This document shows positions 8,245 to 60,673 of a DNA stretch of 64,000 nt, in pieces. A model generated the notes under the pieces. It saw nothing but the letters and a program-made list of their open reading frames with translations, did not search any database and had not been told where the DNA came from. Source of the stretch: an uncultured Acidobacteriota bacterium (GTDB taxonomy: Bacteria; Acidobacteriota; Thermoanaerobaculia; Multivoradales; UBA5704); NCBI GenBank assembly GCA_963795735.1, contig CAWCIU010000004.1:128654-192653 (forward strand), written 5' to 3'. The number at the start of each line of letters is the position of its first letter. Positions within the stretch are counted from its first letter, which is position 1. Both the position numbers and the translations under genes were made by a program.

Positions 8245-8850
8245 GTGATGCAGTGGCCATTTCGTAAATCTTGCCGACAAAGAGAGCGCATTGGCCTCTT
8301 CTCGGCCCTTCTTCTTTTTTTAGGATTGTGGAGTTGCTCGAGCCACTCCACCACCGATAGCCTGCCGCGCCGGATATCAAGCAATCCTCCGGAGTCATTT
8401 CGAGGCTTCTGGCAAGACGACGAACACGCCGATTATCTGGTTGACATTGAGGACCAGCGTGTCGTCGTCTCTTTCAATGGCCAAGTCCGCAAGGTCGCGG
8501 CCATTCTCGATCCCCTGGACTCGCATCTACGCCTCTGCCAGGATGGCCAGGAAGCCACGCGAGAGCTCTTCCTGAACTTGGACAAGCTTACGATCCTGGA
8601 CCCACGCACAAGCGAAAGGCATCACCTGCACCGATTGGCGAGCAAGCCGCGAGAGCTGACGATTTCGCCCCTCAAGCTCCCCGAGGCTTTGCCGGTCACC
8701 GCCGAGAGAGCCCAGAATATCGAGGGGAAGCTGGCAAACGTGTGCGAGCCGACCAGGAGGCCCAGAAGTCACGTTTCGAACAGATGTGGGGAATCGGGGG
8801 AGCGCGGTCACCCAGGGGACAGGCATTACCGGACGATCTCGATACCCTGA
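8245..8850 (+). CDS. Hypothetical lipoprotein (may be the N-terminal part of a frameshifted gene)
   Basis: Signal/lipobox-like LFLGLWSCSS. Sits in a lower-GC patch. The last ~35 codons look like out-of-frame read-through into the next ORF. Confidence 0.35.
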   Translation: MMQWPFRKSCRQRERIGLFSALLLFLGLWSCSSHSTTDSLPRRISSNPPESFRGFWQDDEHADYLVDIEDQRVVVSFNGQVRKVAAILDPLDSHLRLCQDGQEATRELFLNLDKLTILDPRTSERHHLHRLASKPRELTISPLKLPEALPVTAERAQNIEGKLANVCEPTRRPRSHVSNRCGESGERGHPGDRHYRTISIP

Positions 8851-9290
8851 ACATGATCGCCGTCAAAGCGGAAAACACCAAATTCTTGAAAGACCTCGTG
8901 GCCGAGATCGGCTGGATCGATTCGCGGCGCTTTGGCTCCATCGCCGCGGATTACGCCTTTCTCCTGGCGCAGCACAGCCAGGACATCCCCCTTATGCTGG
9001 CAGCTCTGCCGAAGATCAAAGAGGAGATCGAAACTCGCCGGTTGGAAGGGGATACTTACGCGCTCTTGTACGATCGTATTCAGCTCCTTCTAGGTGAGAA
9101 GCAACTCTACGGTACGCGGATGGGAAAAGATCCGGCGGGTCAACCGATCGTGCTGCCGACTCGAGCTCCCGGAAACCGTCGATGAGCGCAGGAAAAACCT
9201 CCGGATGGGGCCGTTGTCCGAGTATGTGAAGATCTTTGGTGCGAATGAGGTTCGATTCAGCCTGGCCTGTCAACAACCTAGACGGCTTGA
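8742..9290 (+). pseudogene. DUF6624-like gene with apparent frameshift(s)
   Basis: The frame-3 ORF carries DQEAQ...GWIDSRRFG...LLAQHS...YALLYDRIQLLLGEKQLYGT, a DUF6624-like pattern recalled from memory. The expected C-terminal ELPETVDERRKNL.MGPLSEY continues in a different frame after ~9160. Confidence 0.4.
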
Positions 9291-10018
9291 ATCTGCCGCA
9301 ATGCCACGACTGGACAAGGCCCAAGGCACTTCTTTGCGTCCAGACCGCAAGACGCAATCACTGTTGCCCAATGCGAGAAAACCTCGTTTAGTGAATTAGT
9401 CGAAGGTCCGAACTCAATCGCGAGATAGCCCTGAACCGGGGTACTTAAAATCACTCCAGCATAGGCTAGAGCTGCCGTGACGGCATCCCATTCGTCTTGC
9501 GAAGATCGGATGGGCGGGGTAGTTCTATATGCACCCGTTACGAAAGCCTCAAACAGGCAAAGTTGTCCGGAATCTGGAGGCTTTCGATCCGTCAAAAATT
9601 GGGGCCGGAGTCCCATCCGGTCAAGTTGGGAAATCAGAATCTTGCCAAGCGTCAAAGCTTTCATCGTTGCGGCGGCGCCAGACTGCAAATACCATGCGTA
9701 GCCAACTTCATGTTCAAAACGAAGCGTGAAGAGCCTGCCACTGTCAGGGAGTGCCGAGGGGGCGGGAGTCCACATCGGAGCCTCGAATCCCAAAGCAACC
9801 CCGGTGCCTGCTCTGAGATCGTCGGCGATACTGGAAGCCAATATGTTCAGATCTGTTCCTGAGCTCCGGCTCATATTAAGCGCTAAGGGATCTATTGCCC
9901 CAGACTCCAGGGAAGGAGCGAGCCGAGCCCAAGCGAACTTTTTCCTTCCGATGGGCTGGCCGTTTATACCTAGCGTGATAACAGCGATATCCACACCATA
10001 GACGACTGTTTTGGTCAT
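9278..10018 (-). CDS. Hypothetical protein (possibly RNase H-like/DUF429-like fold)
   Basis: 246 aa from the ATG at 10018; the ORF-track extension to 10498 overlaps the neighbouring gene. Lower GC than the surroundings. Only weak DUF429-like features (VYGVD..., DEWDAVTAALAY). Confidence 0.45.
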   Translation of the reverse strand: MTKTVVYGVDIAVITLGINGQPIGRKKFAWARLAPSLESGAIDPLALNMSRSSGTDLNILASSIADDLRAGTGVALGFEAPMWTPAPSALPDSGRLFTLRFEHEVGYAWYLQSGAAATMKALTLGKILISQLDRMGLRPQFLTDRKPPDSGQLCLFEAFVTGAYRTTPPIRSSQDEWDAVTAALAYAGVILSTPVQGYLAIEFGPSTNSLNEVFSHWATVIASCGLDAKKCLGPCPVVALRQIQAV

Positions 10019-10020
10019 GG

Positions 10021-10698
10021 CTATCCTTTCTCGTACCAGACACTGACCTCCTCCAGCCCCTTCCGCCTGATGTCCGGTACCTCGGCGTCCGGCGCCGGAT
10101 AGCCGATGGGGAAGAGGATGAAGGGCTTCTCGTTGACCGGGCGGTCGAGGAGGCGGGAGAGGAAGGCCATGGGGCTCGGCGTGTGGGTGAGGGTGGCGAA
10201 ACCCATGTGGTGCAGGGCGGCGATGAACAGGCCGCAGGCGATCCCCACGCTCTCCTTCGGGTAGTAGTTCTTGCGCTTGCCGCCGTCGGGTCCGATGCCG
10301 TACAGCTCCTCGAAGACGACGACGAGCCAGGGGGCGGTCTCCAGGAACGGCTTCTCCCACGAGGTGCCGAGCGGGGCGAGGGCCTCCAGCCATTCCGCGG
10401 GCATGCGGCCGCCGATGTAGCTCTCGTACTCCTCGTCCTCGGCGGCGGCGCGGATCTCGCGCTTCAGCCCCGGGTCCCCCACCACGATGAACTTCCACGG
10501 CTGGCGGTGGGCGCCCGACGGCGCGGTGGACGCCGTGCGGATGGCGATCTCGATCAGCTCGCGCGGGACCGGATCGGGCGAGAAGGAGCGGACGCTGCGG
10601 CGGCGGTCCATCTCGGCGTGGAAGTCCCGCGCCCGGCGGAGCGTCTCACTTTCCGGGAGCCGCTCGGGACGGTAGGGGATGAACGGAGGCCCGCTCAC
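10021..10698 (-). CDS. Iodotyrosine deiodinase-like flavin nitroreductase
   Basis: Colinear with animal/bacterial IYD: RRSVR.F, TAPSGAH..PW.F.VV.DP, E..Y...RM, W.K.FL.TAP, YY...SVGIACG, GYP...VPD.RRK. GTG start overlaps the upstream stop (GTGA). Confidence 0.8.
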   Translation of the reverse strand: MSGPPFIPYRPERLPESETLRRARDFHAEMDRRRSVRSFSPDPVPRELIEIAIRTASTAPSGAHRQPWKFIVVGDPGLKREIRAAAEDEEYESYIGGRMPAEWLEALAPLGTSWEKPFLETAPWLVVVFEELYGIGPDGGKRKNYYPKESVGIACGLFIAALHHMGFATLTHTPSPMAFLSRLLDRPVNEKPFILFPIGYPAPDAEVPDIRRKGLEEVSVWYEKG

Positions 10699-12143
10699 GC
10701 CCCCTCCTCCCGCCGGAGCTCCTCAGCGGTACGGCCGATCAACTCCCAGAGCGCCTCGACATGCTGCCGCTCGGTGCGCAGGTTGCCGATCGCGACGCGC
10801 AGGGTGTGGCGCCCCTTGAGCACCGTATGGGAGAGGAAGACCGGGCCGGCGGCGTTGACGCGGTCGAGGAGCCGCTCGTTGAAGCGGTCCTGACTCTCGG
10901 GAGGGCCGGCGAGGCGGGCGCGGAAGCAGACGACGCTGAAGGGGACCGGGGCGGCCAGCTCGAAGCGGGGATCGGCCTCGACGCGGCCGGCGAGCTCGCG
11001 GGCAAAGGCGCAGTGCTCCCGGATGCGCTCCCGCAAGCCCTCGACGCCGAAGGCGCGGATCACCATCCAGAGCTTGAGGGCGCGGAAGCGGCGGCCGAGC
11101 TGGAAGCCGTAGTCCATCAGGTTCGTCACCTCGGCGTCCTCGCTCGTCCGCAGGTACTCCGGCACCAGCGAGAAGGCGGCGCGCAGCAGCGCCGGATCGC
11201 GCACGAAGAGCACCGAGCAGTCGACCGGGGTGAACAGCCACTTGTGAGGGTTGACCACCAGGGAGTCCGCCCGCCCGAGCCCCGGCATGACGGCCCGGTA
11301 CTCCGGGCAGATCGCGGCCGAGCCGGCGTAGGCGGCATCCACGTGCAGCCAGATCCCCTCCCGGGCGCAGAGGTCGGCGATCTCCGGCAGGGGATCGACG
11401 CTGGTCGTCGAGGTGCTGCCCTGGGTGGCCACGACGGCCATCGGCAGCTTGCCCGCGGCGCGGTCGCTGGCGATCGCCGCCGCCAGCGCCGGGACGGAGA
11501 TCCGGAAGGCCTCGTTGCTGGCGATCCGGCGGACGTTCTCCTGGCCGATCCCGAGGACGATCGCCGCCTTGTCGATCGAGGAGTGGGCCTGATCGCTGGC
11601 GTAGACGGTGAGCGCCGGCGCGTCCGGGCGGCCGGAGAGACCGCGGACCCGGACGTCGAGCCCGGGGAGCCGGTGCCGGGCGGCGGCGAGCGCCACCAGG
11701 CTGCTCGACGAGGCGGTGTCGTTGATGTGGCCGCGGAGCTCCGGGGGCAGCTCCATCATCTGGCCGAGCCACTCGCAGACCCGCTCCTCGAGCTCGGTGG
11801 CGGCCGGCGAGGTGCGCCAGAGCATGGCGTTGACGTTGAGGGCCGCGGCCAGGGTCTCGCCCAGGATGCCGGGAGCGGAGCCGGTGATGCCGAAGTAGGC
11901 GAAGAATCCCGGGTGGTTCCAGTGGGTGACGTTGGGCTCGATCACCCGCAGGTAGTCGTCGAGGAGAGCGTCGAGGGGCTCCGGCTCCACCGGCGGCGAG
12001 GCGGGGAGCGCGCGCTTCACCTCGCCGGGCTTGACGCCCGGGAGCACGGGGCGGTTCCCCACTCCTTCCAGGTAGTCGGCCACCAGGTCGGCCGCGCGGT
12101 GCATCGCGGCCCGGAATTCGTCGGCGGGGAGGTCTTTGGACAT
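10695..12143 (-). CDS. Pyridoxal-dependent aromatic-L-amino-acid/tyrosine decarboxylase (group II)
   Basis: 482 aa from the ATG at 12143. Contains HWNHPGFFAYF, the DAAYAGSA motif and NPHKW (PLP lysine), typical of DDC/TyrDC-type decarboxylases. Confidence 0.85.
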   Translation of the reverse strand: MSKDLPADEFRAAMHRAADLVADYLEGVGNRPVLPGVKPGEVKRALPASPPVEPEPLDALLDDYLRVIEPNVTHWNHPGFFAYFGITGSAPGILGETLAAALNVNAMLWRTSPAATELEERVCEWLGQMMELPPELRGHINDTASSSSLVALAAARHRLPGLDVRVRGLSGRPDAPALTVYASDQAHSSIDKAAIVLGIGQENVRRIASNEAFRISVPALAAAIASDRAAGKLPMAVVATQGSTSTTSVDPLPEIADLCAREGIWLHVDAAYAGSAAICPEYRAVMPGLGRADSLVVNPHKWLFTPVDCSVLFVRDPALLRAAFSLVPEYLRTSEDAEVTNLMDYGFQLGRRFRALKLWMVIRAFGVEGLRERIREHCAFARELAGRVEADPRFELAAPVPFSVVCFRARLAGPPESQDRFNERLLDRVNAAGPVFLSHTVLKGRHTLRVAIGNLRTERQHVEALWELIGRTAEELRREEGA

Positions 12144-12226
12144 GGGGCAAACGATATACCCCGAGAACGCAAAAAGGGCGGCCCGGAGGCCGCCCTTCCC
12201 GCCAGGTCGTCGAGACCCCGTCGCGC

Positions 12227-13285
12227 TTACTTCGAAGCGGTCTTGCTGCCCGCGCGGCGCAGCTCGTCGTCGATCACCGTGGTGATCTGGTCGATCGGCA
12301 CCGCGCCGTTGATGAACCGGCCGTTGATGAACATCGCCGGAGTGCCGCTGACGCCGACCTCCTGGCCGGCCTTCTGGTCGGCCTGGATGGTCGCGGCCTT
12401 CTCGCCGGAGTCGAGGCACTTGTTGAACTTGTCGGCGTTCAGGCCCAGCTCGGCCGCCTTGGTCTTGAGCTGATCGACGGCGAGGGCGCCCTGGTTGGCG
12501 AACATGGCGTCGTGCAACTGCCAGAACTTGCCCTGGTCGTTGGCGCAGAGCGAGGCCTCGGCCGCCTTCTGGGCGTTCGGGTGCATCGGCAGCGGGTACT
12601 GGCGGAAGACGAGGCGCACCTTGTCACCGTACTTCTTCTCGACCTCCTGGATCGACGGGATCAGGCGGGAGCAGTAGGGGCACTGGAAGTCGGAGAACTC
12701 GACGATCGTTACCGGAGCGTTCGCGGGGCCCTTGGCCGGGCCGGTGGCGGCCACCTGGATGCGGACCGGCTCGATCTTGTAGTCGACCTTGTACTTGGCC
12801 TGGAGGGTCTTGAAGTACTCGGAGCGGGACTTCTGCTGTCCCTGCTGCTCGAGGTAGGTCTTGATCTTGTCCGCCACCTGCTCCTTCGGAGCGGGGATCT
12901 GGGCCTTGTTCTGCTCGTAGAAGGCGTTGACCTCGGCGTCGGTCACCACGGCCGGCTTGATCTCGGCGAGGAGCTGCTCCTTGGTGATGTGGCGCGACGC
13001 GGCCTCGGCGTCGAGCAGGCGGTCCTGGACGAGCTGGTTCAGGCTGTTCTCGATGAGCTGGTGGACGTTCTGCTGGTACTCGCGGTCCATGGCCTTGAAC
13101 TGGTCGGCGTTGGCCTCGCGGATCTCGGCCTCGGTGATCGGCTTGCCGTTGACGACGGCGAGCACCTGGTTCGAGCTGCCGGAGCCGGCGGCGCCCGCCT
13201 TCTGCTGCGCGCAGGCCGGCAGGGCGGCCAGCGTGAAGGACAGCAGCAGAGCGCCCGGGATCAAAGGTTTAAAACATGCGTTCAT
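12227..13285 (-). CDS. Secreted DsbA-family thiol:disulfide oxidoreductase with SurA-like N-domain
   Basis: Signal peptide, thioredoxin-fold CPYC active site (FSDFQCPYCSRL) and DsbA-like C-terminal half. ATG at 13285 is preceded by AAGGAG. Confidence 0.8.
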   Translation of the reverse strand: MNACFKPLIPGALLLSFTLAALPACAQQKAGAAGSGSSNQVLAVVNGKPITEAEIREANADQFKAMDREYQQNVHQLIENSLNQLVQDRLLDAEAASRHITKEQLLAEIKPAVVTDAEVNAFYEQNKAQIPAPKEQVADKIKTYLEQQGQQKSRSEYFKTLQAKYKVDYKIEPVRIQVAATGPAKGPANAPVTIVEFSDFQCPYCSRLIPSIQEVEKKYGDKVRLVFRQYPLPMHPNAQKAAEASLCANDQGKFWQLHDAMFANQGALAVDQLKTKAAELGLNADKFNKCLDSGEKAATIQADQKAGQEVGVSGTPAMFINGRFINGAVPIDQITTVIDDELRRAGSKTASK

Positions 13286-27191: not shown

Positions 27192-28362
27192 CTAGTGTAG
27201 TGGGTCCGATGTTCGGCAACTTCTGTTATCCTTTCCTGGTAGGGAATACCTCCAGGAGGGAACATGAAGGTAGCTGTCTCGATAGTCCTTTCGCCTGAGG
27301 AGAGGGCTGAGCTTGAGAAGCTTGCACGTGGCCGTAGGGTATCCGTGCGCGTGGCAGAGAGGGCGAGAATCGTCCTGCTGGCTGCTGAAGGCAAGCAGAA
27401 CCGAGAGATTGCTGAGATTTCTGGTGCAGCGCGACGGACAGTTGGTGTTTGGCGCCGTCGTTTTGCCGAGAAGCGGACCGTCGGCATCTTGAAGGATGCC
27501 CCTCGGGCCGGGAGGCTGCCTTCGATTGGCGAGGATGTAATTCGGGAGATCGTGCGCAAGACGACGCAAGAGACGCCAGTGGCGGGAACGCACTGGAGCA
27601 CCCGTAGTCTGGCCAAGATGATGGGGCTGAGCCCGAGCACGATCGGTCGTGTCTGGAGACGTCATGGCCTGAAGCCTCACCTGACTCGAACCTTCAAATT
27701 GAGTCGGGATGCGAGGTTCGTGGAGAAGTTGGAGGATGTCGTCGGTCTTTACCTGAACCCTCCAGAGCATGCGCTGGTTTTCTCTGTCGATGAAAAAAGC
27801 CAAATTCAGGCGCTCGACCGCACCCAGCCAGGCCTTCCCCTTGTGCCGGGCCGCCATGGCACGATGACCCACGACTACAAGCGCCACGGAACGACGACAC
27901 TGTTCACTGCGCTCAATACGCTGAACGGGAAGGTGATCGGGACCTGCATGCCGCGGCATCGCCATCAGGAGTGGATTAAGTTCCTGAGCCTCATTGACCG
28001 AGAGACCCCGAAGAGCCCGGAGATTCATCTGATCGCGGACAACTATGCGACTCACAAGCATCCGAAGGTTCAAGCTTGGCTGGCTCGCCATCCGCGGTTC
28101 AGGATTCATTTCACCCCAACCAGCGCCTCATGGCTCAACATGGTCGAAAGGTTCTTCCGTGACCTGACAGAAAACCGGTTGCGTCGGGGCATCTTTCGCA
28201 GCGTCGCAGATCTGGTTACGGCGATCCATGAGTATCTGGCTCGTCACAACGAAGATCCCAAACCCTTTATCTGGACGAAGACCGCAAGCGACATCCTTGA
28301 AAAGGTCACACGCGCTCGGCAGGCTCTGGTTAAGGACACATCTGTTTGACCCACTACACTAG
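27192..28362 (+). mobile_element. IS630-family insertion sequence
   Basis: Perfect terminal inverted repeats CTAGTGTAGTGGGTC (27192-27206) and GACCCACTACACTAG (28348-28362). Consistent with a TA target duplication (27193-94 / 28360-61). One transposase gene inside. Confidence 0.9.
27264..28349 (+). CDS. IS630 family transposase
   Basis: 361 aa with an N-terminal HTH ([18 protein letters not shown]) and a DDE domain: ...[13 protein letters not shown]..., [20 protein letters not shown]. Confidence 0.9.
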
Positions 28363-52607: not shown

Positions 52608-52886
52608 GATCATTCCAGCACCCGCAGAAGCGAGAACCAACTCCGCCGCCTCCAATCCTTCCACCCGATAGCCACGCGGAGTGATCAACGCCACACCCTT
52701 GCCGGCGTCCTCGGCACCTGCGTATATATCCCGGCTCGGCCTCGACCGGGCGAAAGCGTGTCTACCTATCTAAGGACGTGGCACCTCTTCCCGCCCGCCG
52801 GGGAGCCCGAACCCCGGCCACTGGCTGAGACCACCTAAGTCCATGTCAGCGCGGAATTTAGAGGCGGTGTAGGTAGGAGGACTTGA
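52606..52886 (-). mobile_element. Degenerate partial IS66-family copy (orfA 3' part plus diverged terminal IR), inverted relative to the intact copy
   Basis: 52606-52758 is the near-identical reverse complement of 53711-53866, with only a few mismatches by eye. GGTGTAGGTAGGAGGACTT at 52866-52884 resembles the IR GGGGTAGGGCGAGGTCTTAC. Confidence 0.7.
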
Positions 52887-53070: not shown

Positions 53071-53430
53071 TCAAGACTCTTGCCGTGAAAATAGGATGTT
53101 GAAAAAAGCCAGGATGATACCCAACCCAGCAATAGCGTCCAAGACGGTAAGGCCTTGGCTGATCCAGTGAATGGGTGAGATCTCGCTAGATCCAGCAGGG
53201 CTCATTGTCGCGATAGTTCTGTAGAAGATTAGCCTTTTTAAGCTCCCGCTACTGCCGGGAGACATAGAATAGAGATTGTTGAAGTGAAGGCCATAGCTGT
53301 CGGAGATCCATATCATGACGAGCTTTAGAATGCTCAGGAATATTGCCATCTCGCCTGCATGTACTAGGGAAATAACAAATAGTCTTGCCCTCCTCAGGAC
53401 ACGATCCTCGTTCTTCGGGATCCCTGAAAG
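53071..53430 (-). pseudogene. 3' part of an IS66-interrupted K-channel-like membrane protein gene
   Basis: After removing the IS and one TSD copy, this part continues in frame from the 55782-56143 part. It encodes TM, a pore-helix-like LIFYRTIATMSPAGSSEISP and a further TM. Confidence 0.7.
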
Positions 53431-53506
53431 GTAAGACCTCGCCCTACCCCGTCTTGTAGCCGTTGCCCCGAAAACGTCATTCTGGTCCTCTCAAAGGGAG
53501 GAGCCC

Positions 53507-53857
53507 ATGGATGCACGCGTGAAGAGATTTCGCGAGGCGGTGACACGCCAGGGAGGCAGTGGAGTTGGCAAGCGGTATCCGTCGGAGCTGCGAGCGCTGG
53601 CAGTGGCGGTGGCAGAGGATCGCAGAGAAGAGCCGCTGGCTCGGGTGGCGGCGGATCTTGGCATCTCGACGGTGAGCTTGCAGCGCTGGCTTGAGCCGGG
53701 TGAGCCCGTTCGCTTTCGCCCGGTCGAGGTCGAGCCGGGATATGCGCAGGTGCCGGGGCCGCCGGCAAGGGGTGTGGCGTTGATCACTCCGCGAGGCTAT
53801 CGGGTGGAAGGGTTGGAGGCGGCGGAGTTGGTCTCGCTTTTGCGGGTGCTGGAATGA
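53507..53857 (+). CDS. tnpA: IS66 accessory protein TnpA (orfA, HTH)
   Basis: 116 aa in first position in the IS66. Its ATGA overlaps orfB. Confidence 0.8.
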   Translation: MDARVKRFREAVTRQGGSGVGKRYPSELRALAVAVAEDRREEPLARVAADLGISTVSLQRWLEPGEPVRFRPVEVEPGYAQVPGPPARGVALITPRGYRVEGLEAAELVSLLRVLE

Positions 53858-54225
53858 TCGGAAGCACCCGCCAGGTGACGGTCTATGCGTTTTCCCAGCC
53901 GGCCGATCTTCGCCGCGGCTACGACGGCTTGAGCGCGCTGGTGCGGGAGGCGATGGGGCGCGACGAGCTGTCGGGCGACCTGTACCTGTTCGTCAGTCGG
54001 ACTCGTCGCCGGGCGAAGGTTCTTCTTTGGGATGGCACCGGTCTGTGCGTCTATGCCAAACGGCTGGAGTGCGGGAGGTTTGCCTGCCTGTGGGGCCAGA
54101 AGGACGCCTCGCAGGTACGCCTGACGGTCAACGAGCTGCAGTTGTTCCTGGAGGGCAGCAAGCTGGTAGGCCGAGTGACCCTGAGCCCGCCGGCCGTTGT
54201 TGCGTCAACCAGTGTTTTTTGCTAG
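53854..54225 (+). CDS. tnpB: IS66 accessory protein TnpB (orfB)
   Basis: ...DLRRGYDGLSALV...LYLFVSRTRRRAKVLLWDGTGLCVYAKRLE..., the canonical IS66 Orf2 pattern. Confidence 0.9.
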   Translation: MIGSTRQVTVYAFSQPADLRRGYDGLSALVREAMGRDELSGDLYLFVSRTRRRAKVLLWDGTGLCVYAKRLECGRFACLWGQKDASQVRLTVNELQLFLEGSKLVGRVTLSPPAVVASTSVFC

Positions 54226-54234
54226 AAAAGGCAT

Positions 54235-55725
54235 GTGATCGCGATCCAGAAAGAGAGCCGCCTGGAGGTCCTCCGCGAAGTGGCTCTTCTGCTCGAGCAG
54301 GAAAACCGTCGTCTCCACGAAAGAATCCAGCACTTGACGCTGACCCTGGCCCGCCTTCAGGGCCAGGATGGGACTTCGGCCCTGCAGGGCGAGCTCGAGG
54401 CGCTCAAGGAGCTTTTGTCGCGTCGGGAGAAGGCCCTGTTTGGCGACTCCTCGGAGAAGCGGCCCCACCCGGAGCTGTCCACCCCGGAGCCGAAGCGGCG
54501 CCAGGGGCACGGCCCGCGCGAGCAACTGCAATTACCGGTCGCCGAGGTGCTGCACGTGCTGGACGAGTCGAATCGTGACTGCCCGGTCTGTGGTGGGCCT
54601 CTCGAGGAGATGAAGGATCAGCAGGAAATCTCCGACGAGATCACGGTCGTGGAGCGGCGCTTTCTCGTGGCGCGTCACCTGCGCCAGAAGTACCGCTGCC
54701 GGTGCAACGGTGCGGTGGTCACGGCGCCCGGCCCTCGCAAGCTGATCCCGGGAGGACGCTATTCGCCGGCGTTTGCCGTGGAGGTGGCGGCCTCGAAGTA
54801 CCTCGATCACCTGCCGCTGGAGCGTCAGAGCCGGATCATGCAGCGCGAAGGCCTGGAGGTGGGCTCCCAGACGTTATGGGATCAGCTCGACACCTTGGCC
54901 GGGCACCTCGAGCCGACCTATCGGGAGTTGGGGCGGCGAGCCCTGGCGTCTCCCCTGGTCCATGCTGACGAGACCCACTGGCGGCTGATGGCCAAGAGCG
55001 AGCGCAAGAAATATTGGGTTTGGTGTTTGACGAGTCCCGACACGGTCTACTGCCGGATTTTCGACAATCGGGCCAAAGATGCGGCCCAACAGCTTCTGGC
55101 GGGATACCAGGGAACGGTGGTCGCCGATGGCTACGGCGCGTATGGAGCCTTGGCCCGAGCCGGTCCGGGTTTCACCCTGGCGCACTGCTGGGCGCATGTG
55201 CGGCGAAAATTCGTCGAGATCGAGTCGCACTACCCGCAACAAGCTCAGGAGATTCTCGATCTGATTGGAGAGCTCTACACTGTGGAGCGAGATGTCCTCG
55301 CTCGCCACGTTGAAGACTCACCGGCGGCCCGACTGGCGCTGCGCGCTCGGCTGCGCGCAGAACGCTCTCGCGCGCTGATCGAAAAAATCCGGGTCTGGGC
55401 CGAATCTCAGAAGGTCCTACCGCGGAGTGGCCTGGGCCAAGCCATTGGCTACATGCAAGAGCTCTGGGCCGGTTTGACCCGCTTTCTCAACGATCCTCTC
55501 ATCCCGCTCGACAACAACCCTGTCGAGCGCGCCTTGCGCGGCTTGGTGGTCGGCCGAAAGAATCACTATGGCTCTCGCTCAAGCCGTGGCTGCGAAGTCG
55601 CCGCTCTGTTCTACAGCCTGATCGAAACGGCCAAGCTCTGCGGTGTCGAGCCGAAGAGCTACTTGCTGCGCGCCACCTCCAGAGCCCTGGAGCATCCCGG
55701 CGCGGTGACTCTCCCGAAACCCTGA
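54235..55725 (+). CDS. tnpC: IS66 family transposase (TnpC)
   Basis: Leucine-zipper N-terminus, zinc ribbon CPVCGG...CRC, ...YLDHLPLERQ... and a DDE region (ADETHW..., DGYGAY, CWAHVRRKF). Confidence 0.92.
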   Translation: MIAIQKESRLEVLREVALLLEQENRRLHERIQHLTLTLARLQGQDGTSALQGELEALKELLSRREKALFGDSSEKRPHPELSTPEPKRRQGHGPREQLQLPVAEVLHVLDESNRDCPVCGGPLEEMKDQQEISDEITVVERRFLVARHLRQKYRCRCNGAVVTAPGPRKLIPGGRYSPAFAVEVAASKYLDHLPLERQSRIMQREGLEVGSQTLWDQLDTLAGHLEPTYRELGRRALASPLVHADETHWRLMAKSERKKYWVWCLTSPDTVYCRIFDNRAKDAAQQLLAGYQGTVVADGYGAYGALARAGPGFTLAHCWAHVRRKFVEIESHYPQQAQEILDLIGELYTVERDVLARHVEDSPAARLALRARLRAERSRALIEKIRVWAESQKVLPRSGLGQAIGYMQELWAGLTRFLNDPLIPLDNNPVERALRGLVVGRKNHYGSRSSRGCEVAALFYSLIETAKLCGVEPKSYLLRATSRALEHPGAVTLPKP

Positions 55726-55781
55726 CTCCGATCCGACCGGACCGCTGCGCTTGCCCGCATTGGGGTAGGGCGAGGTCTTAC

Positions 55782-56143
55782 CCTGAAAGTCCTGCGCGAA
55801 CCTTTCTCACAACCATTTCAAAAGTTCTCAACAAGACAAAACCCAATAAAAATCCAGTTATAAGATCGCGTGAGCATAAAACTGAGAATCGAGCATTTGA
55901 TACGTTTGGCAGCCACCAATATGAAACTATATATAAGGAAATCGCAATGGTAAAATAAATTTCCATCATGATATCGTAGTTCAAACTGCCTGGGGCAGGA
56001 ACATTCATATGGTGACGAACAATCCTGAGCCGTCCAAAAATTCGAAAGAGTAAGCGTAAGATCATCTTAAATATTGACTCTGGCATTACGGGCGAATAAG
56101 CAGTCTTGCCAAGCATGTTCAAAACGTACATTAAGGGGGTCAT
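55782..56143 (-). pseudogene. 5' part of the IS66-interrupted K-channel-like membrane protein gene
   Basis: The track ORF 55778-56143 terminates at a TAA supplied by the IS66 end. The ATG at 56143 overlaps the upstream stop (ATGA). Confidence 0.7.
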
Positions 56144-57228
56144 AGAGCGCCCTCGCTAGACCACCAAAGGATTTTTTTTACTAGAAAATCAGTGTAGGCG
56201 GCTTTGGCCCACGAGCTAAGCCTCAGTAGAGGCCGATAGAATGCGCTATTATCTAGCACGATTACCTCCTTGCCTGTTAGTAATGCCTCTAAGCCAACCG
56301 TGGAGTTTATTGTGACTACTTTATCTACGCGCTGCAGCACGGAGAATAAATTTTCTCCTTCATTAATGCTAAGCTTTGGAAGCTTAGATACCGTTCGGGC
56401 TATTGCCTTGCGTTGCTCTTGGGCAGAATAAGGGTGCAGCCTGAAGATCCCCGTCATGTCAGGATCATTACGGCTTTCCGAGGAGAACCACTTGAAGAGT
56501 TCTTGATCTGGACTTCGTCCAAATGATTTGAGTTGCAAGTCGCTACGCACTTGCCCTATTAGGAGGTGCGACGCGCGGATACTATGAATTTCTTCAGTAA
56601 GGGTGCTTGGATACTTGGACTCCTTTGCAGATAGCCAGGATTGCAGGAAATGCCAGCCTGCGCCAGCATCAAATTCCTTGGCTACGGCGGGGTTAAAAAG
56701 CTTGGTGGCCTGCCACAGATTGCTATTAGTACGGTAGTATGGTATATCAAAAGAAGCTATGTAGCTATTCGGGAAAAATCCTTTTTCGAAAAATATCACT
56801 CTCATACAATGTCTTTGGGCGAGAATCAATCCAACTTTGTTGACCAGGTTTCGGGCTCCCCATATGAGTATAGATTGGGGGCAGATTTTGTCAATAATTC
56901 CGTTCAGATTGAAATAAGCTGCTTGTGCGGTGCTTCGGATGGCATTTGTAATGTCTCGGGTGTCAGCTGCATCAAGAATCAGTCCTCTCTCGACCTTTAT
57001 CCACTCTCCTAAGGGGAGCGGAACGCATCCTGAATAAAACAAAATATGCTCTCTTATTCCGAGCTGTTTCAGTGCTGTTCTAGCTTTCTCTTGTTGCGGT
57101 GGATGGTTATTCGATTTTATGAGATCGCAAAAATCAACTAGATAGAGGGCGCATTTCAAGTTCTCGCGCAAGAATCTTTCAAATCGATCTCGATCTCTGA
57201 CAAATGAGGGGATAATAACCAAGATCAT
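56140..57228 (-). CDS. Capsule_synth (KpsC/KpsS-like) glycosyltransferase-fold protein
   Basis: The C-terminal VVTINSTVGLEALLTGKEVIVLDNSAFY matches the KpsS/KpsC family signature region (recalled). 362 aa, AT-rich codon usage. Confidence 0.55.
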   Translation of the reverse strand: MILVIIPSFVRDRDRFERFLRENLKCALYLVDFCDLIKSNNHPPQQEKARTALKQLGIREHILFYSGCVPLPLGEWIKVERGLILDAADTRDITNAIRSTAQAAYFNLNGIIDKICPQSILIWGARNLVNKVGLILAQRHCMRVIFFEKGFFPNSYIASFDIPYYRTNSNLWQATKLFNPAVAKEFDAGAGWHFLQSWLSAKESKYPSTLTEEIHSIRASHLLIGQVRSDLQLKSFGRSPDQELFKWFSSESRNDPDMTGIFRLHPYSAQEQRKAIARTVSKLPKLSINEGENLFSVLQRVDKVVTINSTVGLEALLTGKEVIVLDNSAFYRPLLRLSSWAKAAYTDFLVKKILWWSSEGAL

Positions 57229-57235
57229 AACAGTA

Positions 57236-58042
57236 TTATGGGATTAAAATTTCCAAGGATTCTGCGTCAGTCCTTCCGGGTAAGTGCATTCGACCACCTG
57301 AGTCAACTACGACGTAGTCGTTATTAGCCTTGTGGAAGGACAGTAATCTAAAATCAATAGGGTACTGATCGCCTAGTCGTATGGTGAGATCAATTAGCTC
57401 ATGTTCGGGAAGAAACTCCTCACTAGATATGCTTTCGCCGCGACCTAGCTTAGACAGTGGGAGCAGGGCGACAAGAGCCAGATTAGGCTCCATTTTTAGT
57501 ATTTCTCCGACAAGAACATGAATCTGAGTGACATTTGATTTTGAGACCACGATGTTTACAGATTTTCGGAAGTCCTTATTTTTTATCTGCGCGAAAAAAT
57601 CTGCAATTTTAAGCTTTTGGCTCAGTCGGTAGTTTCTGTGTAAGCTTACCTGCCCAAAGGGCTCATCTATGCTAACGTTTAGCTCATCAGTACTGTTTAG
57701 TATTTCGATAATGTCGTCTCCTGCAGGTACGGTTCCATTTGTAGTTATCTTGATAGTCTCGATTTTCTCGGAGTTATGGAGGAGACGGATTAGATCGCTC
57801 AATTCAGGCGCGAGCAGGGGTTCACCGCCAGACACTGTAACTCCTCGAACTCCTAGCCACTCAATAGCTTTGATTATGCTGCCTAAATTAGGCTTGGCGT
57901 GCGGAATCTCAGGTCCGCTTCGGCTCAAGCAGTAGCGGCACCTTAAGTTGCAGAAGCGTGTGATGTGGATACATGCTCTCTCAGTGTTGGCTCCTTGTAA
58001 TCTGTTCAATGGGTTCTGTAATGTGATATCGCTCTCGATCAC
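57236..58042 (-). CDS. Radical SAM enzyme, viperin/MoaA-like half-barrel
   Basis: CNLRCRYC (CxxxCxxC) about 30 aa from the N-terminus, SGGEPLL, TTNG and a C-terminal NNDYVVVDSGGRM. The start is GTG at 58042 or TTG at 58009; there is no in-frame ATG. Confidence 0.8.
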   Translation of the reverse strand: MIESDITLQNPLNRLQGANTERACIHITRFCNLRCRYCLSRSGPEIPHAKPNLGSIIKAIEWLGVRGVTVSGGEPLLAPELSDLIRLLHNSEKIETIKITTNGTVPAGDDIIEILNSTDELNVSIDEPFGQVSLHRNYRLSQKLKIADFFAQIKNKDFRKSVNIVVSKSNVTQIHVLVGEILKMEPNLALVALLPLSKLGRGESISSEEFLPEHELIDLTIRLGDQYPIDFRLLSFHKANNDYVVVDSGGRMHLPGRTDAESLEILIP

Positions 58043-58682
58043 CGAATCTCTCCTTTATTGTGTTTTTCAACGTATAGCATTTATCCCTCTTCATTAGTCC
58101 AACCCCAAGGGTGTTGTGGATTAATACTTCGAGATTGTTTCCGCTTCGATCTTGGCACTGCAGTCGTGCGGGTACGTAGAGCCCTTCCAGATCGTCTTTT
58201 ACCCGGACTAGTATTGGATTGTCCAGTGCCTTATGGCTGAGCATCTTTTCTAGGTCGGTGGTATAGATAATATTTTCTGTGCGCTGAAAAAACGGGCACA
58301 ATGTTGTAGACACCCCTTGCCAGCGGACGGGCCAAAGCCTTCCGAACTCGCGCACTCTCTTGACGCGACGCAATGCGCTAAGAAACGAAGGGACATCTTC
58401 TGTTTTAATTTTAACGACTATATCAAGATCGTGGAGCGGGGTGGAAAGCTGTGGACTCCCTTCTATCAATAAGGACCCTGTAGAGTAAATCTCACCTAGG
58501 CAGCTAAATGCTTCACTCAGCCCGTCAAGCTCTGATAGTAACAGTTGATCCTCAGGGAGAGAGCGCAAAGGAATTGGCTCGATGACATCGGTTATCGCCG
58601 ACATTGGGATTAAAAAGAGCGGTAGGCTAGGGCACCAAGTAGGGGGGGAGATACCCAAGACGGAACTTAGGAACGAGCGCAT
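57981..58682 (-). CDS. Pol-beta-superfamily nucleotidyltransferase-like protein
   Basis: YSTGSLLIEGSPQLSTPLHDLDIVV fits the G[SG]-x(9-13)-D-x-D minimal NTase motif. An alternative start exists at 58604. The 3' end overlaps the radical SAM gene. Confidence 0.5.
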   Translation of the reverse strand: MRSFLSSVLGISPPTWCPSLPLFLIPMSAITDVIEPIPLRSLPEDQLLLSELDGLSEAFSCLGEIYSTGSLLIEGSPQLSTPLHDLDIVVKIKTEDVPSFLSALRRVKRVREFGRLWPVRWQGVSTTLCPFFQRTENIIYTTDLEKMLSHKALDNPILVRVKDDLEGLYVPARLQCQDRSGNNLEVLIHNTLGVGLMKRDKCYTLKNTIKERFGDRERYHITEPIEQITRSQH

Positions 58683-58753
58683 TTCCGAATCTGATATGGC
58701 AATTCGCCTGCCGCCCTTGTCCTTGTAGCCAAGAGAATAGTATTCAGCGTGGT

Positions 58754-58969
58754 TTAGTGTTTTTTTGCGAATTTACCCTGCCTCAGAGAATTGTCGAAGC
58801 GCTTGCTCCTAACGTAAAAGGGCCGTACTAACAGGTATTTCGGCTGACTTGTTCCAGGGCGTATAAGTGCGTAAGGGACAAAGCAGTATCCTGAGACATG
58901 ATTGTGGCAGAAATGAACGTAGCCGAATTGGATGGCTTGGCCAAGCTTGTTCGCGCTATAAATCTCCAT
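58754..58969 (-). CDS. Small hypothetical protein (about 71 aa)
   Basis: ORF between the deaminase and NTase genes, overlapping the deaminase stop by 14 nt if started at MEIYSANK. No similarity recognised. Confidence 0.3.
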   Translation of the reverse strand: MEIYSANKLGQAIQFGYVHFCHNHVSGYCFVPYALIRPGTSQPKYLLVRPFYVRSKRFDNSLRQGKFAKKH

Positions 58970-59453
58970 TCTTGATTCCCTTAGGGTCGAACTTGCGGCA
59001 TAAAATACCGGCCGCATCAAGGATCAGGAGACCGAAGTTATTTTCGAATTCTTCTAAGTAGTATATATTTTTTACTCCCAATAGGGCCAGTGCTTGTGCG
59101 CATCCAGCGCAGGGTGCCAGAGTAGTGAATACTTCGCAAGACTCAAAGCTCTGGGGCGTCTTGGTAGAACGAAGAACATCTATTATGGCCATTACTTCGG
59201 CATGCAAAGCTCTTGCGCTTTGAAGCCTTTTTTCGAAACTATCTTTCGCGGAATGCTGTTGCTTCGATGCGTCGTAAGGCAACCGAGTGCAGTAACCTCG
59301 CCCCAAAATTTCGTTGTGATATACAATTATCGCTGCGGCACGTTCAGGCTCAAGGGCAAGGGCCGCAAGGTCGCTAAGCTCGGCTATCACCGCACCGAAG
59401 CGACTACCCCGATTATCGGCAAGATTCAGATAGCTGCGCTCGTAATGCTGCAT
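58956..59453 (-). CDS. CDA-fold (cytidine/dCMP-type) zinc deaminase
   Basis: HAEVMAI (H-A-E) and PCAGC (PCxxC) zinc-binding motifs at the correct spacing. 165 aa. Confidence 0.75.
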   Translation of the reverse strand: MQHYERSYLNLADNRGSRFGAVIAELSDLAALALEPERAAAIIVYHNEILGRGYCTRLPYDASKQQHSAKDSFEKRLQSARALHAEVMAIIDVLRSTKTPQSFESCEVFTTLAPCAGCAQALALLGVKNIYYLEEFENNFGLLILDAAGILCRKFDPKGIKNGDL

Positions 59454-59964
59454 GCGTAATCAATACCTCGATGTGCTTTGGTAAGTCAGGACAATCTATA
59501 GCGCAGTCAGTTAAGGAATGCAAGGGGAGAAGCCAGATTTCCTACCCCGGCCTATTGTGGGCTCTCATCGACGATCTTCCTAACTCATGAGGTACCCACA
59601 GTCGGTTCGAGTCCAGAGAATTGGAGAACCTGGATCAGAGATGCTCCTTTAGCCTGTGAGTGGCTCTCCAACCTGTGAGGTGCCTCTTCCAAACAGATAA
59701 GCCCTCCATAGTGGTTGCAGTGGAGAGCAGGTGCTATCTCGCCGCACTCTTATCCCAGACAGCTTTCTCATCGTGGTCAACATCCGCAGAGGTACCCTTG
59801 CCGGCAGGTGCCAGCCGAGCAGTCGGTCATGCGTAGCAACGCTTCGCCGCCAAGTCGACGCGCTGGTCTCGGAAGATCGAGGGAAAGCCGCCACTCGCGG
59901 AGAGTAGCCAAGGCCCAGCATATCATCCCGACCCAGAAAACCAGCTTGCTGGTATAATGGCCCC

Positions 59965-60240
59965 ATGAAGACGACGCTCGATTTGCCCGACGATCTCGTG
60001 CGCGCGGTGAAGATCCGCGCTGTCGAGGAGAACAGAAGGCTCAAGGACATGATGGCCGACCTTCTGCAGCGCGGCCTCTCTCAGAAGCGTGGCGCGGCTT
60101 CGACGGCCCGCAGACGCCTCAACCTGCCACTCATAGAGTGCGCTCACGAGGCCCGTCCTGATGAGGAGATGACCCCCGAGCGCGTGGCCAAGGTGCTGCT
60201 CGAAGAGGAAGCGGGGGTACACCGTGATCCTCTGCGATAG
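59965..60240 (+). CDS. vapB: Type II antitoxin (VapB-like)
   Basis: MKTTLDLPDDLVRAVKIRAVEENRRLKDMMADLL, a typical antitoxin N-terminus. It overlaps the downstream PIN gene by 17 nt. Confidence 0.7.
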   Translation: MKTTLDLPDDLVRAVKIRAVEENRRLKDMMADLLQRGLSQKRGAASTARRRLNLPLIECAHEARPDEEMTPERVAKVLLEEEAGVHRDPLR

Positions 60241-60673
60241 CAACGTCTGGCTTGCCCTGGCTCTGTCCAAACACACCCACCATACCGCCGCGCGCGATTG
60301 GCTGGGTACCATCGAGGAGCCCGCGTCGGTCTTCTTTTGCCGCGCGACGCAGCAGTCTTTTCTCCGCTTGCTCACCAACGCCTCGGTCCTGGCCCCCTAC
60401 GGGAATCCTCCGCTGACGAACCGTGAGGCGTGGTCAGCCTACGAGGCGTTCCTCGCCGATGACCGGATCGCCTGCCGGGCGGACGAGCCGGTGGGAGTGG
60501 AACCCTCCTGGAAAGAGCTCGCGGTGGGGAGGACCGCCTCACCCAAGCTCTGGAGGGACGCCTATCTCGCCGCCTTCGCGCGGGCGGGTCGATATTCGCT
60601 GGTGACGACGGACGCGGCGTTCCGTCAGTTCCGTGGTCTGGATCTCGTGGTTCTGGGGAAAGGCCAAGCCTGA
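60224..60673 (+). CDS. vapC: PIN-domain toxin (VapC family ribonuclease)
   Basis: (V)ILCDSNVWLAL with the first acidic residue, and a C-terminal LVTTDAAF motif. GTG start. Confidence 0.8.
   Translation: MILCDSNVWLALALSKHTHHTAARDWLGTIEEPASVFFCRATQQSFLRLLTNASVLAPYGNPPLTNREAWSAYEAFLADDRIACRADEPVGVEPSWKELAVGRTASPKLWRDAYLAAFARAGRYSLVTTDAAFRQFRGLDLVVLGKGQA

Follow-up and report, generated by a model that had tools for sequence, protein, structure and literature searches.

What does the tightly packed, AT-rich run of minus-strand genes in the 64,000-nucleotide stretch of DNA analysed here (the window) encode, is it intact, and what might it do? A preliminary description had counted six genes, one of them channel-like, in an operon on an island flanked by insertion sequences, and had found the setting to fit an anti-phage or modified-nucleotide system. 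The cassette consists of five genes, not six, all on the minus strand: a dCMP-deaminase-like gene A, an OB/NTase-like gene B, a viperin/MoaA-like radical SAM (rSAM) gene C, a KpsC-like gene D and a gene E for a four-TM, pore-loop membrane protein. It is horizontally acquired and very rare, and the copy in the present genome, probably that of a Thermoanaerobaculia-like acidobacterium, is decaying, disabled by a frameshift and an insertion. Its function is possibly anti-phage.

Organization and origin of the cassette

Because an IS66-family element sits inside gene E, the feature spans 53071-59453 plus a leader of ~300 bp, and is wider than first described. Its parts are as follows.

53071-53430, minus strand: gene E 3' part, codons ~122-237 (TM3, pore-loop-like segment, TM4), in frame once the insertion sequence is removed
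53431-55781, plus strand: IS66-family element within gene E (orf1, TnpB_IS66, DDE_Tnp_IS66; PF05717 7.5e-28, PF03050 2.3e-75)
55782-56143, minus strand: gene E 5' part, codons 1-121 of the interrupted membrane protein, ending in a TAA supplied by the insertion sequence
56140-57228, minus strand: gene D, 362 aa, KpsC/KpsS/WbbB-like retaining beta-Kdo transferase-like glycosyltransferase (PF05159 1.5e-16, 61 bits against a cutoff of 20)
57236-58042, minus strand: gene C, 268 aa, short single-cluster radical SAM enzyme, viperin/MoaA-like (PF04055 1.5e-17; CNLRCRYC and GGEP motifs)
57981-58968, minus strand: gene B, ~329 aa if repaired, split into 71-aa and 233-aa ORFs; beta-rich/OB-like N- and C-terminal domains around a putative Pol-beta-type NTase-like core
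58760-58766, minus strand: A7 homopolymer, the frameshift site of gene B; A8 would restore the frame
58956-59453, minus strand: gene A, 165 aa, stand-alone CDA-fold zinc deaminase, dCMP-deaminase-like (PF00383 2e-12; HAE and PCxxC motifs)
59454-59750, minus strand: AT-rich leader 5' of gene A, where the foreign-composition island ends on the right

The junctions first reported were all reproduced: the end of gene A (58956) overlaps the gene B ATG at 58968 by 13 nt, the start of gene C (58042) overlaps the end of gene B (57981) by 62 nt, 7 bp separate the end of gene C (57236) from the start of gene D (57228), and genes D and E have a common ATGA at 56140-56143. The AT-richness of the segment was also confirmed, with a GC content of 0.459 at 55790-59453 versus 0.688 across the first 52 kb; the 3' part of gene E lies at 0.46-0.50 and the leader at 0.50-0.53, versus 0.62-0.69 beyond 59750. 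No convincing promoter, tRNA or Rfam match was detected in the leader. Housekeeping genes (sdh, argR, zwf, trmO) lie to the left of the island and a VapBC-like pair to the right; an island of GC 0.46 in a window of 0.69, with housekeeping genes to its left, is evidence of foreign origin.

The preliminary description had proposed looking for co-occurrence of the genes across genomes. In searches of billions of proteins, the colinear set recurred in only three other metagenome contigs: L001 carries it at 28-44% identity per protein, L002 retains the deaminase tail followed by B, C, D and E, and in L046 a deaminase tail precedes an intact B and the first part of C. A-B-C-D-E is a conserved unit across four unrelated metagenomic contexts. 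Among 5.8e9 protein clusters, two close homologues of gene C and three homologues of gene B were found, an exhaustive search of 1.84e9 proteins yielded only four close relatives of B, and searches of GTDB species representatives, IMG/VR and plasmids gave no match.

Two lesions in the window copy

The insertion sequence does not merely flank the operon but lies within it. The IS66-family element is 2351 bp long. Its 21-nt inverted repeats (53430-53450 and 55762-55782) match perfectly, and an 8-bp target duplication, CCTGAAAG, is present at 53423-53430 and 55782-55789. Removal of 2359 bp restores a 237-aa gene E reading frame that reaches 53071 and can be aligned with its homologues over the whole length, the 5' part matching the L001 and L002 E proteins over residues 1-116 and the 3' part being 37-40% identical to their C-terminal halves. 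The 121-aa "channel-like" ORF was rejected as a complete gene, its stop codon being provided by the end of the element.

The second lesion lies in gene B. Intact homologues of 318-354 aa align over both the 71-aa ORF and the 233-aa "NTase" ORF, previously counted as two genes, indicating that these are one gene, split where an A-run has lost 1 nt. In tblastn searches the L001 and L002 B proteins matched both window ORFs in two frames, and, once repaired, the protein shares 58% identity with the intact protein P0058 along its whole length. Could the split instead be functional, through programmed −1 frameshifting or phase variation on A_AAA_AAA, leaving the system still partly active? In the 0 frame, A7 forms a classical slippery heptamer at which a −1 slip gives exactly the homologous protein, a GAGG/AGGG motif lies 9-14 nt upstream, and the identical A7 recurs in an independent Logan assembly (run ERR11523670; L017, 100% identical). 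We nevertheless give this explanation almost no credence: B occupies a single frame in 3/3 homologues, the closest of which, L046, is in frame through A6 at the A7 site; no stimulatory RNA structure was found 3' of the run (z = 0.21); and gene E is separately destroyed by the insertion sequence. Given two disruptive lesions, the window copy is probably non-functional.

Predicted properties of the five proteins

The deaminase, rSAM and Capsule_synth domain calls of the preliminary description were upheld by the Pfam matches listed above. Gene A matches dCMP deaminases in the PDB (4p9c, 1e-8; 1vq2, 6e-7) and phrog_174 dCMP deaminase (1e-16). It is 43% identical to its L001 orthologue, and orthologous deaminase C-termini also lie 5' of B in L002 and L046.

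Gene B has no direct match in Pfam, PADLOC or NCBIfam, and Foldseek matches to its AF2 model (pLDDT 63) are OB folds. The call of a Pol-beta NTase rests on a GS...DxD motif, which is invariant in the family alignment (as GS...HDxD, together with W..R and CPFF), and on weak matches of distant family members to NTP_transf_2 and to PDB 5uvd; the assignment is a weak one.

The structure and sequence of gene C point in different directions. With its AF2 model (pLDDT 88.5), the best Foldseek match is mouse viperin (6q2p/6q2q, TMq 0.69-0.71), a CTP-bound structure, followed by SkfB and MoaA. A sequence search of the PDB favours MoaA over viperin (63 versus 41 bits), and the NCBIfam viperin model gives 49.8 bits against a cutoff of 180, with MoaA scoring higher; gene C falls below both family cutoffs. 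The protein is nearest to viperin by fold and belongs to neither family. A canonical prokaryotic viperin (pVip), in which C would make the chain terminator ddhCTP from CTP and the other genes would be accessory, is accordingly highly improbable. Although viperin is the best structural match, the PADLOC pVip profile scores 66.8 bits and the C-terminal motif NDYVVVDSGGRM aligns with SYLILDEYMRF of viperin, the profile match is limited to positions 3-158 of 257, and the sequence comparisons above favour MoaA. Moreover, the same alignment to viperin shows gene C stopping ~15 residues past the motif, without viperin's long C-terminal tail, and known pVips stand as single genes or pair with kinases, unlike the present set.

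A profile search of the PDB with gene D recovered KpsC (6mgb/6mgd, 5e-6) and WbbB (5fa0, 5e-5). Its EKGF (Glu), GQVRSD (QXXXD) and RLHPY (HP) segments align with the catalytic motifs of retaining beta-Kdo transferases (PMC10148158), and the full catalytic set is kept. Hydropathy analysis of gene E gives four TM segments. For the pore-like character first ascribed to this protein the matches are weak (KirBac3.1 pore region, E 0.06-0.13; Ion_trans_2, E 1.5), the GYG filter is absent, and a pore can be only weakly assigned.

Proposed function and alternatives

We tentatively favour, at somewhat less than even confidence, a model in which the genes form an undescribed mobile conflict cassette, most likely anti-phage, that combines cytidine-nucleotide/CMP-sugar chemistry with a membrane effector. 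Gene C, whose closest fold is common to viperin and MoaA, both of which act on NTPs, may transform a nucleoside triphosphate or nucleotide-linked substrate by radical chemistry. Gene B, with an NTase-like core flanked by OB-like domains, would bind nucleic acid or a nucleotide and transfer a nucleotidyl group. Gene D would glycosylate the product or an acceptor from a CMP-activated ulosonic acid, e.g. CMP-Kdo, with the Glu as putative base, the Asp of QXXXD as nucleophile and the HP histidine. Gene A would deaminate a cytosine nucleotide, so as to tailor the product or to drain (d)CMP, and the four-helix gene E protein would be the membrane end-point, an effector pore or an exporter. The cytidine theme suggested earlier receives some support from the gene D catalytic set, the dCMP-deaminase likeness of gene A and the viperin fold of gene C.

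The neighbourhoods bear on the defence role. In L001 a type II CBASS begins ~900 bp downstream of gene E and directly follows the cassette; in L002 an HNH-HIT protein lies downstream. We infer defence from this setting, essentially from one CBASS adjacency among four instances, and the anti-phage setting proposed at the outset gains from L001 but is drawn from very few loci. PADLOC returned no system-level match, only generic rSAM and deaminase domains, and no named system in PADLOC, NCBIfam, Pfam or the searchable literature corresponds to the cassette, in keeping with the earlier view that the combination is unnamed.

Distant B homologues often lie beside a short rSAM and a membrane protein (a HAD-phosphatase-2TM fusion) or a glycosyltransferase, and this recurrence suggests a wider module family. 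The HAD-2TM/B/rSAM cassettes have atypical GC, one has a serine recombinase as neighbour, and the 2TM part bears a weak resemblance to PycTM. The rSAMs adjoining distant B homologues are no closer to gene C than generic rSAMs, and many B-family genes stand alone or in tandem amid housekeeping genes, without an rSAM.

A beta-Kdo-transferase-like enzyme with a membrane protein fits a surface glycolipid pathway equally well. Here D would use a CMP-sugar to place Kdo, or a related ulosonic acid, on an acceptor bound to the membrane. E would serve as membrane acceptor, as flippase or as anchor, while B and C would make or tailor acceptor or donor; phage would be affected, if at all, only indirectly, by masking of receptors. 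Enzymes with the full retaining beta-Kdo set are not known outside capsule and O-antigen synthesis, membrane proteins accompany GtrB-like GT2 enzymes that bear TM helices at their C-termini in sister cassettes, and the L015/L016 cassette adjoins the LPS-core genes PfkB, Glyco_transf_9 and CTP_transf_like. However, the L016 cassette resembles a foreign insertion (GC 0.455 versus 0.57-0.66 in its flanks), with a serine recombinase adjoining it and the LPS genes on the other strand, and it is not obvious what a dCMP-deaminase-like enzyme or an OB/NTase-like protein would do in such a pathway. A location in capsule or LPS loci had been named as evidence for polysaccharide synthesis; capsule, LPS or sugar-nucleotide genes, including kps, kds and export genes, were found near 0/4 instances. 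We regard this pathway as unlikely, though worth serious consideration.

Cytosine nucleoside pathways, such as that of blasticidin S, unite a glycosyltransferase, a radical SAM enzyme (BlsE) and a CDA-fold deaminase. The compact, mobile cassette of atypical GC could accordingly make a small cytosine-nucleoside natural product, with the deaminase for tailoring or self-resistance (cf. blasticidin S deaminase) and E as exporter. BlsE (7vob/7voc) does appear among the gene C matches (E 0.009 by sequence, 1.3e-7 by fold), but far below viperin, SkfB and MoaA; a CMP hydrolase, aminotransferase, peptide-forming enzyme and regulator are missing from the cassette, gene E is pore-loop-like rather than like a known exporter family, and gene A is nearest to dCMP deaminases, not to nucleoside or blasticidin deaminases. 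Such a cluster is distinctly improbable.

Comparison with known systems

Individual genes of the favoured conflict cassette resemble parts of described systems. Gene A has its CDA fold and zinc motifs in common with dCMP deaminases and with the anti-phage dCTP deaminase (Tal et al.; NCBIfam NF041025, PADLOC dCTPase), and its deaminase domain matches the anti-phage enzyme at ~1e-11. In contrast to that enzyme, gene A is a 165-aa deaminase domain only, with no kinase-like part at the N-terminus and a score of 43.7 bits where the cutoff is 400, and it always occurs with partner genes in cassette loci. Gene D passes the Pfam threshold for KpsC, KpsS and WbbB (GT107/GT99; PF05159), and its Glu base, QXXXD nucleophile and HP motifs align with those of KpsC. 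It differs in being a single 362-aa module with profile matches of only ~30 bits, in lacking a capsule or O-antigen context, and in sharing an operon with a radical SAM enzyme and a deaminase.

Like pVips and eukaryotic viperin (RSAD2), gene C is a short single-cluster radical SAM enzyme; viperin and gene C superpose at TMq ~0.7 over ~255/268 residues, and have in common a His before the cluster motif (CIHxxxxCxxxCxxC) and a colinear C-terminal beta-hairpin motif. Gene C stays below the family thresholds, lies slightly nearer to MoaA by sequence and lacks the C-terminal extension. It is one of five genes in its operon, the others encoding a deaminase, an NTase-like protein, a glycosyltransferase of the beta-Kdo type and a membrane protein.

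CBASS, Pycsar and Hailong have a similar layout, with a nucleotidyltransferase-like enzyme and a small multi-TM protein in a defence-island setting. However, B has no PADLOC match and belongs to neither the CD-NTase/SMODS nor the PycC enzymes, the cassette has three additional enzymes, and E carries no recognisable nucleotide-sensing domain. The undescribed three-gene HAD-2TM/B/short rSAM cassettes (L005, L008, L015/16, L019-L023) have in common with the window the B-family GS...DxD, W..R, CPFF signature, an adjoining short radical SAM enzyme with a similar C-terminal motif, and a membrane protein, sometimes with a glycosyltransferase. Their B proteins are only ~20% identical to that of the window, a HAD phosphatase-2TM fusion takes the place of E, a GT2 replaces D or the glycosyltransferase is absent, and the deaminase is missing.

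The anti-jumbo-phage system Ophion (rSAM, PHP and PRTase; bioRxiv 10.1101/2025.09.30.679545) has wholly different partner genes, the cassette containing neither PHP nor PRTase. Compared by description, both are multi-gene, rSAM-centred sets of nucleotide-handling enzymes, and in each the rSAM is related to pVip yet distinct from it.

An AT-rich operon of five genes

Because E is interrupted by an IS66 element and B is split by a frameshift, the AT-rich feature is a five-gene operon spanning 53071-59453, together with an AT-rich leader, and two of its five genes are disrupted in the window's genome. The GC content of 55790-59453 is 0.459 versus 0.688 in the first 52 kb of the window, bearing out the foreign composition ascribed to this segment in the preliminary description; another AT-rich patch lies at 53071-53430. 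The cassette genes, designated A to E in order, and the pair of genes adjoining them are as follows.

59965-60673, plus strand: VapBC-like pair, adjoining the upstream side of the island and divergently oriented
58956-59453, minus strand: A, deaminase
57981-58968, minus strand: B, nucleotidyltransferase-like (NTase-like)
57236-58042, minus strand: C, radical SAM protein (rSAM)
56140-57228, minus strand: D, KpsC-like glycosyltransferase
from 53071, minus strand: E, membrane protein

The open reading frames called at first, and the junctions between them, are all present on the minus strand: the "NTase" and rSAM frames overlap by 62 nt, C and D are 7 bp apart, D and E have ATGA in common, and the deaminase frame overlaps a "71-aa ORF" by 13 nt. 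Pfam recovered three of the domains attributed to these frames, namely the deaminase (PF00383, 2e-12), the rSAM (PF04055, 1.5e-17) and Capsule_synth (PF05159, 1.5e-16), while the "NTase," the small ORF and the "channel-like" ORF had no match in Pfam, PADLOC or NCBIfam.

Scans of the island for tRNAs, Rfam families, terminators and promoters gave no useful match. The left flank of the island is housekeeping (succinate dehydrogenase, ArgR, G6PD, TrmO), and the VapBC-like pair on the other side consists of a 91-aa RHH-like protein (FitA-like, E 0.007, weak support) and a 149-aa protein with a PIN domain (2e-10). The G6PD cluster indicates that the host is probably a Thermoanaerobaculia-type acidobacterium. 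Elsewhere in the window, an ORF at 27264-28349 (plus strand), IS630-type transposase-like judging by its N-terminal sequence, lies inside a lower-GC patch at 27-28 kb (GC ~0.58), and a further patch of reduced GC content (0.54-0.60) occupies 8200-10000, where no long gene of high GC3 is obvious.

Two lesions in the window copy

The small ORF and the "NTase," originally described as separate genes, are the halves of B. At related loci the corresponding proteins are 318-354 aa long and align, in two frames, over both the 71-aa and a 233-aa ORF of the window, which makes the small ORF the 5' portion of B and rules out the six-gene reading. The frame switch maps to a run of seven A residues (A7, 58760-58766), and the addition of one A yields a B of 329 aa, whose full-length identity to the intact homologue P0058 is 58%. 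An assembly or sequencing error at this site is unlikely, since the identical A7 is found in an independent Logan assembly of public run ERR11523670 (L017), which matches the window at 100% identity over 3278 bp, taking in the A7 run and reaching 27 bp into the IS, and which may come from the same reads. Programmed frameshifting is unsupported: the RNA 3' of the run shows no excess of folding stability over shuffled sequence (z = 0.21), and the closest homologue, on metagenome contig L046, stays in frame through A6 at the same site. On these three grounds we read the split as a one-base deletion rather than as programmed frameshifting.

The second lesion lies in E. An arrangement in which IS elements only flank the operon, as had been proposed, is ruled out by a 2351-bp element that sits within this gene, bounded by perfect 21-nt inverted repeats (53430-53450 and 55762-55782) and with the 8-bp direct repeat CCTGAAAG on both sides. 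It encodes an IS66 Orf2 protein (PF05717, 7.5e-28) and an IS66 DDE transposase (PF03050, 2.3e-75), and thus displays the TnpB_IS66 and DDE_Tnp_IS66 proteins, terminal inverted repeats and 8-bp target duplication of the IS66 family. The stop codon of the 121-aa "channel-like" ORF comes from the IS terminus. Removal of the IS with one copy of the repeat (2359 bp) puts this ORF in one frame with the AT-rich one at 53071-53349; the restored 237-aa E aligns over its full length, junction included, to proteins of 245 and 236 aa at the same position in metagenome contigs L001 and L002. The window copy is a pseudogenised relic; as it is broken twice, functional work needs either a repaired copy or the cassette of L001.

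Left of the island, a 152-bp fragment of the same IS66-family element (52608-52758, 92.8% identity, inverted) is the remnant of a second copy. A sequence identical to the IS66 transposase (54235-55725 in the window) is recorded on a separate 2.4-Mb contig, so that the element either has several copies or occurs in more than one related genome.

Conservation, rarity and neighbourhoods of the cassette

Co-occurrence of the genes, a check suggested in the preliminary description, is seen in contigs L001 and L002, which carry the same colinear gene set, and in L046, which carries part of it.

Gene sets colinear with the island (protein lengths in aa)
L001: A 163, B 321, rSAM 263, D 363, E 245
L002: A C-terminal tail, B 318, rSAM 266, D 363, E 236
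L046 (fourth instance): A tail, intact B, rSAM start

Identities to the window are 28-58% per protein, and the instances are thus independent, diverged copies. Only two of 5.8 billion protein clusters are close to C (44% and 41% identity), both within the same colinear set, and HMMER, run exhaustively over 1.84 billion representatives, revealed only four close B proteins. Searches with B and D found no relatives in 185,579 GTDB species genomes, for which profiles were used, or in 72,556 plasmids, a search of JGI metagenome contigs with D found nothing, and in IMG/VR the queries B, C and D brought up just two distant rSAMs. The cassette is a conserved yet extremely rare unit.

In L001, a type II CBASS that looks complete (TIR-SAVED effector, SMODS cyclase, ThiF-like E1, JAB; 8338-12552) begins ~900 bp downstream of E. 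An unannotated 968-aa protein is encoded upstream of the cassette in this contig. In L002, the cassette is followed by a gene for a 328-aa HNH and HIT fusion (4128-5114), which PADLOC matches to defense-type models, ThsC-like HIT and PtuB-like HNH.

Predicted activities of A, C and D

A scores 47.3 bits against PF00383 (cutoff 25), and its zinc motifs (HAE and PCxxC) are present as LHAEVMAI and APCAGCAQ. It is nearest to dCMP deaminases, both among solved structures (PDB 4p9c, 1e-8) and by its match to phrog_174 (1e-16). Against the anti-phage dCTP deaminase model NF041025 it reaches 43.7 bits for a cutoff of 400, over profile positions 321-390 of 437, and the match covers the deaminase domain only.

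C is a 268-aa single-cluster rSAM in which CNLRCRYC and SGGEPLL are invariant among three orthologues; these CX3CX2C and GGEP motifs are common to all radical SAM enzymes and so do not discriminate for viperin. A confident AlphaFold2 model of C (pLDDT 88.5) has CTP- and UTP-bound mouse viperin as its top Foldseek matches (6q2p/6q2q, E 2.6e-10, TMq 0.69-0.71), a small lead, with SkfB (4.7e-10), SuiB and MoaA (TMq 0.64) marginally behind. By sequence, MoaA (63 bits) ranks ahead of SkfB (44) and viperin (41), with the core alone aligning. The viperin model NF038283 gives 49.8 bits for a cutoff of 180 (positions 6-169 of 281), the PADLOC prokaryotic viperin (pVip) model 66.8 bits over positions 3-158 of 257, short of the full profile, and the MoaA model TIGR02666 66 bits for a cutoff of 284. 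Invariant cysteines are limited to C24, C31, C35 and C38, and the C-terminal Cys triad of the second [4Fe-4S] cluster of MoaA is absent. The C-terminal motif NDYVVVDSGGRM aligns to what we take to be the corresponding viperin segment, SYLILDEYMRF, and serves as a lead only; C ends ~15 residues beyond it, as against presumably ~50 more in human viperin, so that the long viperin tail, an extension that closes over the NTP, appears to be missing. Judged by its profile scores, C belongs to neither the viperin nor the MoaA family, and the model suggests that it may resemble enzymes of these types in action and use a nucleotide substrate. That the island is a canonical pVip system, for which the partial pVip match and the fold speak and against which the sub-cutoff NF038283 score stands, we regard as highly improbable.

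D matches PF05159 with 61.2 bits (cutoff 20), and its L001 and L002 orthologues with 22 and 32 bits. A profile of the three orthologues retrieves KpsC (6mgb/6mgd, 5e-6) and WbbB (5fa0, 5e-5). The segments GQ(V/A)xxD, (L/P)HPY and EKGFF are invariant among the three and align to the DQTYGD/GQVESD, HPE/HPD and LEDGF segments of KpsC. In the CMP-Kdo-using retaining beta-Kdo transferases, the Asp of QXXXD is the nucleophile, the His of HP protonates the CMP phosphate and a Glu is the general base (PMC10148158). We infer that EKGF of D corresponds to Glu66. Because the Glu, QXXXD and HP motifs all align, D is probably a catalytically competent CMP-ulosonic-acid transferase.

Such an activity would also suit a Kdo-glycolipid or surface-modification pathway, and the preliminary description held that a polysaccharide role would be indicated by gene sets lying consistently inside capsule or LPS loci. 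Around the four instances there are no capsule, LPS, sugar-nucleotide, kps, kds or export genes, so that this pattern is not what is found (four of four), and D likewise stands outside the capsule and O-antigen locus context that characterizes retaining beta-Kdo glycosyltransferases (GT99/GT107). We consider a surface pathway somewhat unlikely.

The less familiar partners, B and E

B of the window has no Pfam match. TGS...HDxD, W..R and CPFF motifs are invariant, and TGS and HDxD are kept across 36 members of the B family, that is, B and its distant homologues; four of the 36 relatives match PF01909 (best E 9e-4). The wider family (~320 aa) shows weak matches to NTP_transf_2, MTPAP and MdcG, and one relative carries the source name "predicted nucleotidyltransferase." Against solved structures, a profile of the close family has no match and that of the wider family retrieves PDB 5uvd alone (0.085). 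In Foldseek searches with a mediocre AlphaFold2 model (pLDDT 63), the beta-rich N- and C-terminal parts match OB folds only (Teb1, HIN, IF-1), at low TM-scores. It is reasonable to describe B as a putative NTase with OB-like wings.

E contains four hydrophobic helices. The layout TM3-loop-TM4 is compatible with a pore-loop (K+ channel-like) topology, and this stretch weakly matches the pore helix and filter region of KirBac3.1 (E 0.06-0.13). Ion_trans_2 (PF07885) is matched at E 1.5 and 9.2 bits, below the cutoff of 22.5, and E is without a GYG filter, with SPAGS, SPMKS or TSVKP in place of TIGYG.

Distant homologues of B often adjoin a short rSAM gene. A fusion of a HAD phosphatase to two transmembrane helices (HAD-2TM), with B and rSAM, occurs in L005/L006, L008 (followed by GT2), L015/L016 and L019-L023, and the L018 locus has a pair of small TM proteins, GT2, rSAM and B. 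An NTase-like protein together with a short rSAM and a membrane protein, at times also a glycosyltransferase, is thus met repeatedly in these loci, and the three-gene HAD-2TM/B/short-rSAM cassette is a recurring, undescribed one. The L016 cassette has a GC content of 45.5% versus 57-66% in its flanks and adjoins a serine recombinase, and the 2TM part of its fusion weakly resembles PycTM. E has no similarity to the membrane proteins of these sister cassettes. A grouping of the rSAMs beside distant B genes with C of the window was rejected, as they are no closer to C than generic rSAMs are. Many B genes stand alone or in tandem triplets, without rSAM and in housekeeping surroundings; in L027, L029, L032-L034, L036, L037, L040 and L043, two or three paralogues lie in tandem with no rSAM, among housekeeping neighbours that are uninformative. 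The B family is a sizeable group of ~320-aa NTase-like proteins that lacks a Pfam model and of which several subfamilies pair with an rSAM and a membrane protein; an active cassette would, if confirmed, give the first handle on it.

Function and relation to known systems

We tentatively favor, at somewhat less than an even chance, a mobile conflict module, most likely anti-phage, in which A, C and D would carry out pyrimidine-nucleotide and CMP-sugar chemistry, B would contribute nucleotidyl transfer or nucleic-acid binding, and E would be the membrane end-point. The substrates, the order of the reactions, the part of E and the defense role in this scheme are what we infer; the five-gene set is conserved, its composition foreign, its two lesions plain, and A, C and D carry their catalytic motifs. 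This functional reading draws on only four instances, known from sequence alone. That the set is instead a small cytosine-nucleoside natural-product cluster seems to us improbable. A bolder form of the anti-phage reading would make the cassette and the wider B/short-rSAM modules a new anti-phage class, in which C, the OB-flanked B and D jointly make a modified cytidine- or Kdo-bearing nucleotide that either is toxic to phage replication or serves as the gating signal of a pore-loop membrane effector. We hold this to be unlikely; if true, the retaining beta-Kdo transferase fold would have a part in defense for the first time.

Viperin-like rSAMs usually serve antiviral chain-terminator synthesis, dCMP-type deaminases nucleotide-pool editing, and retaining beta-Kdo transferases capsule-anchor synthesis. 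The intact cassette, if active, would join these three enzyme families in one pathway outside their known settings. PADLOC-DB v2 gives generic partial matches only (pVip and the dCTPase deaminase domain) and none for B, D, E or their L001 orthologues; no system model in PADLOC, NCBIfam or Pfam fits the gene set, and the literature searched contains no description of the combination, in agreement with the initial failure to recognize a named system. We place the gene set outside all systems described so far. Ophion is likewise built on a viperin-related rSAM, but its partner genes are quite different from those of the cassette (bioRxiv 10.1101/2025.09.30.679545).
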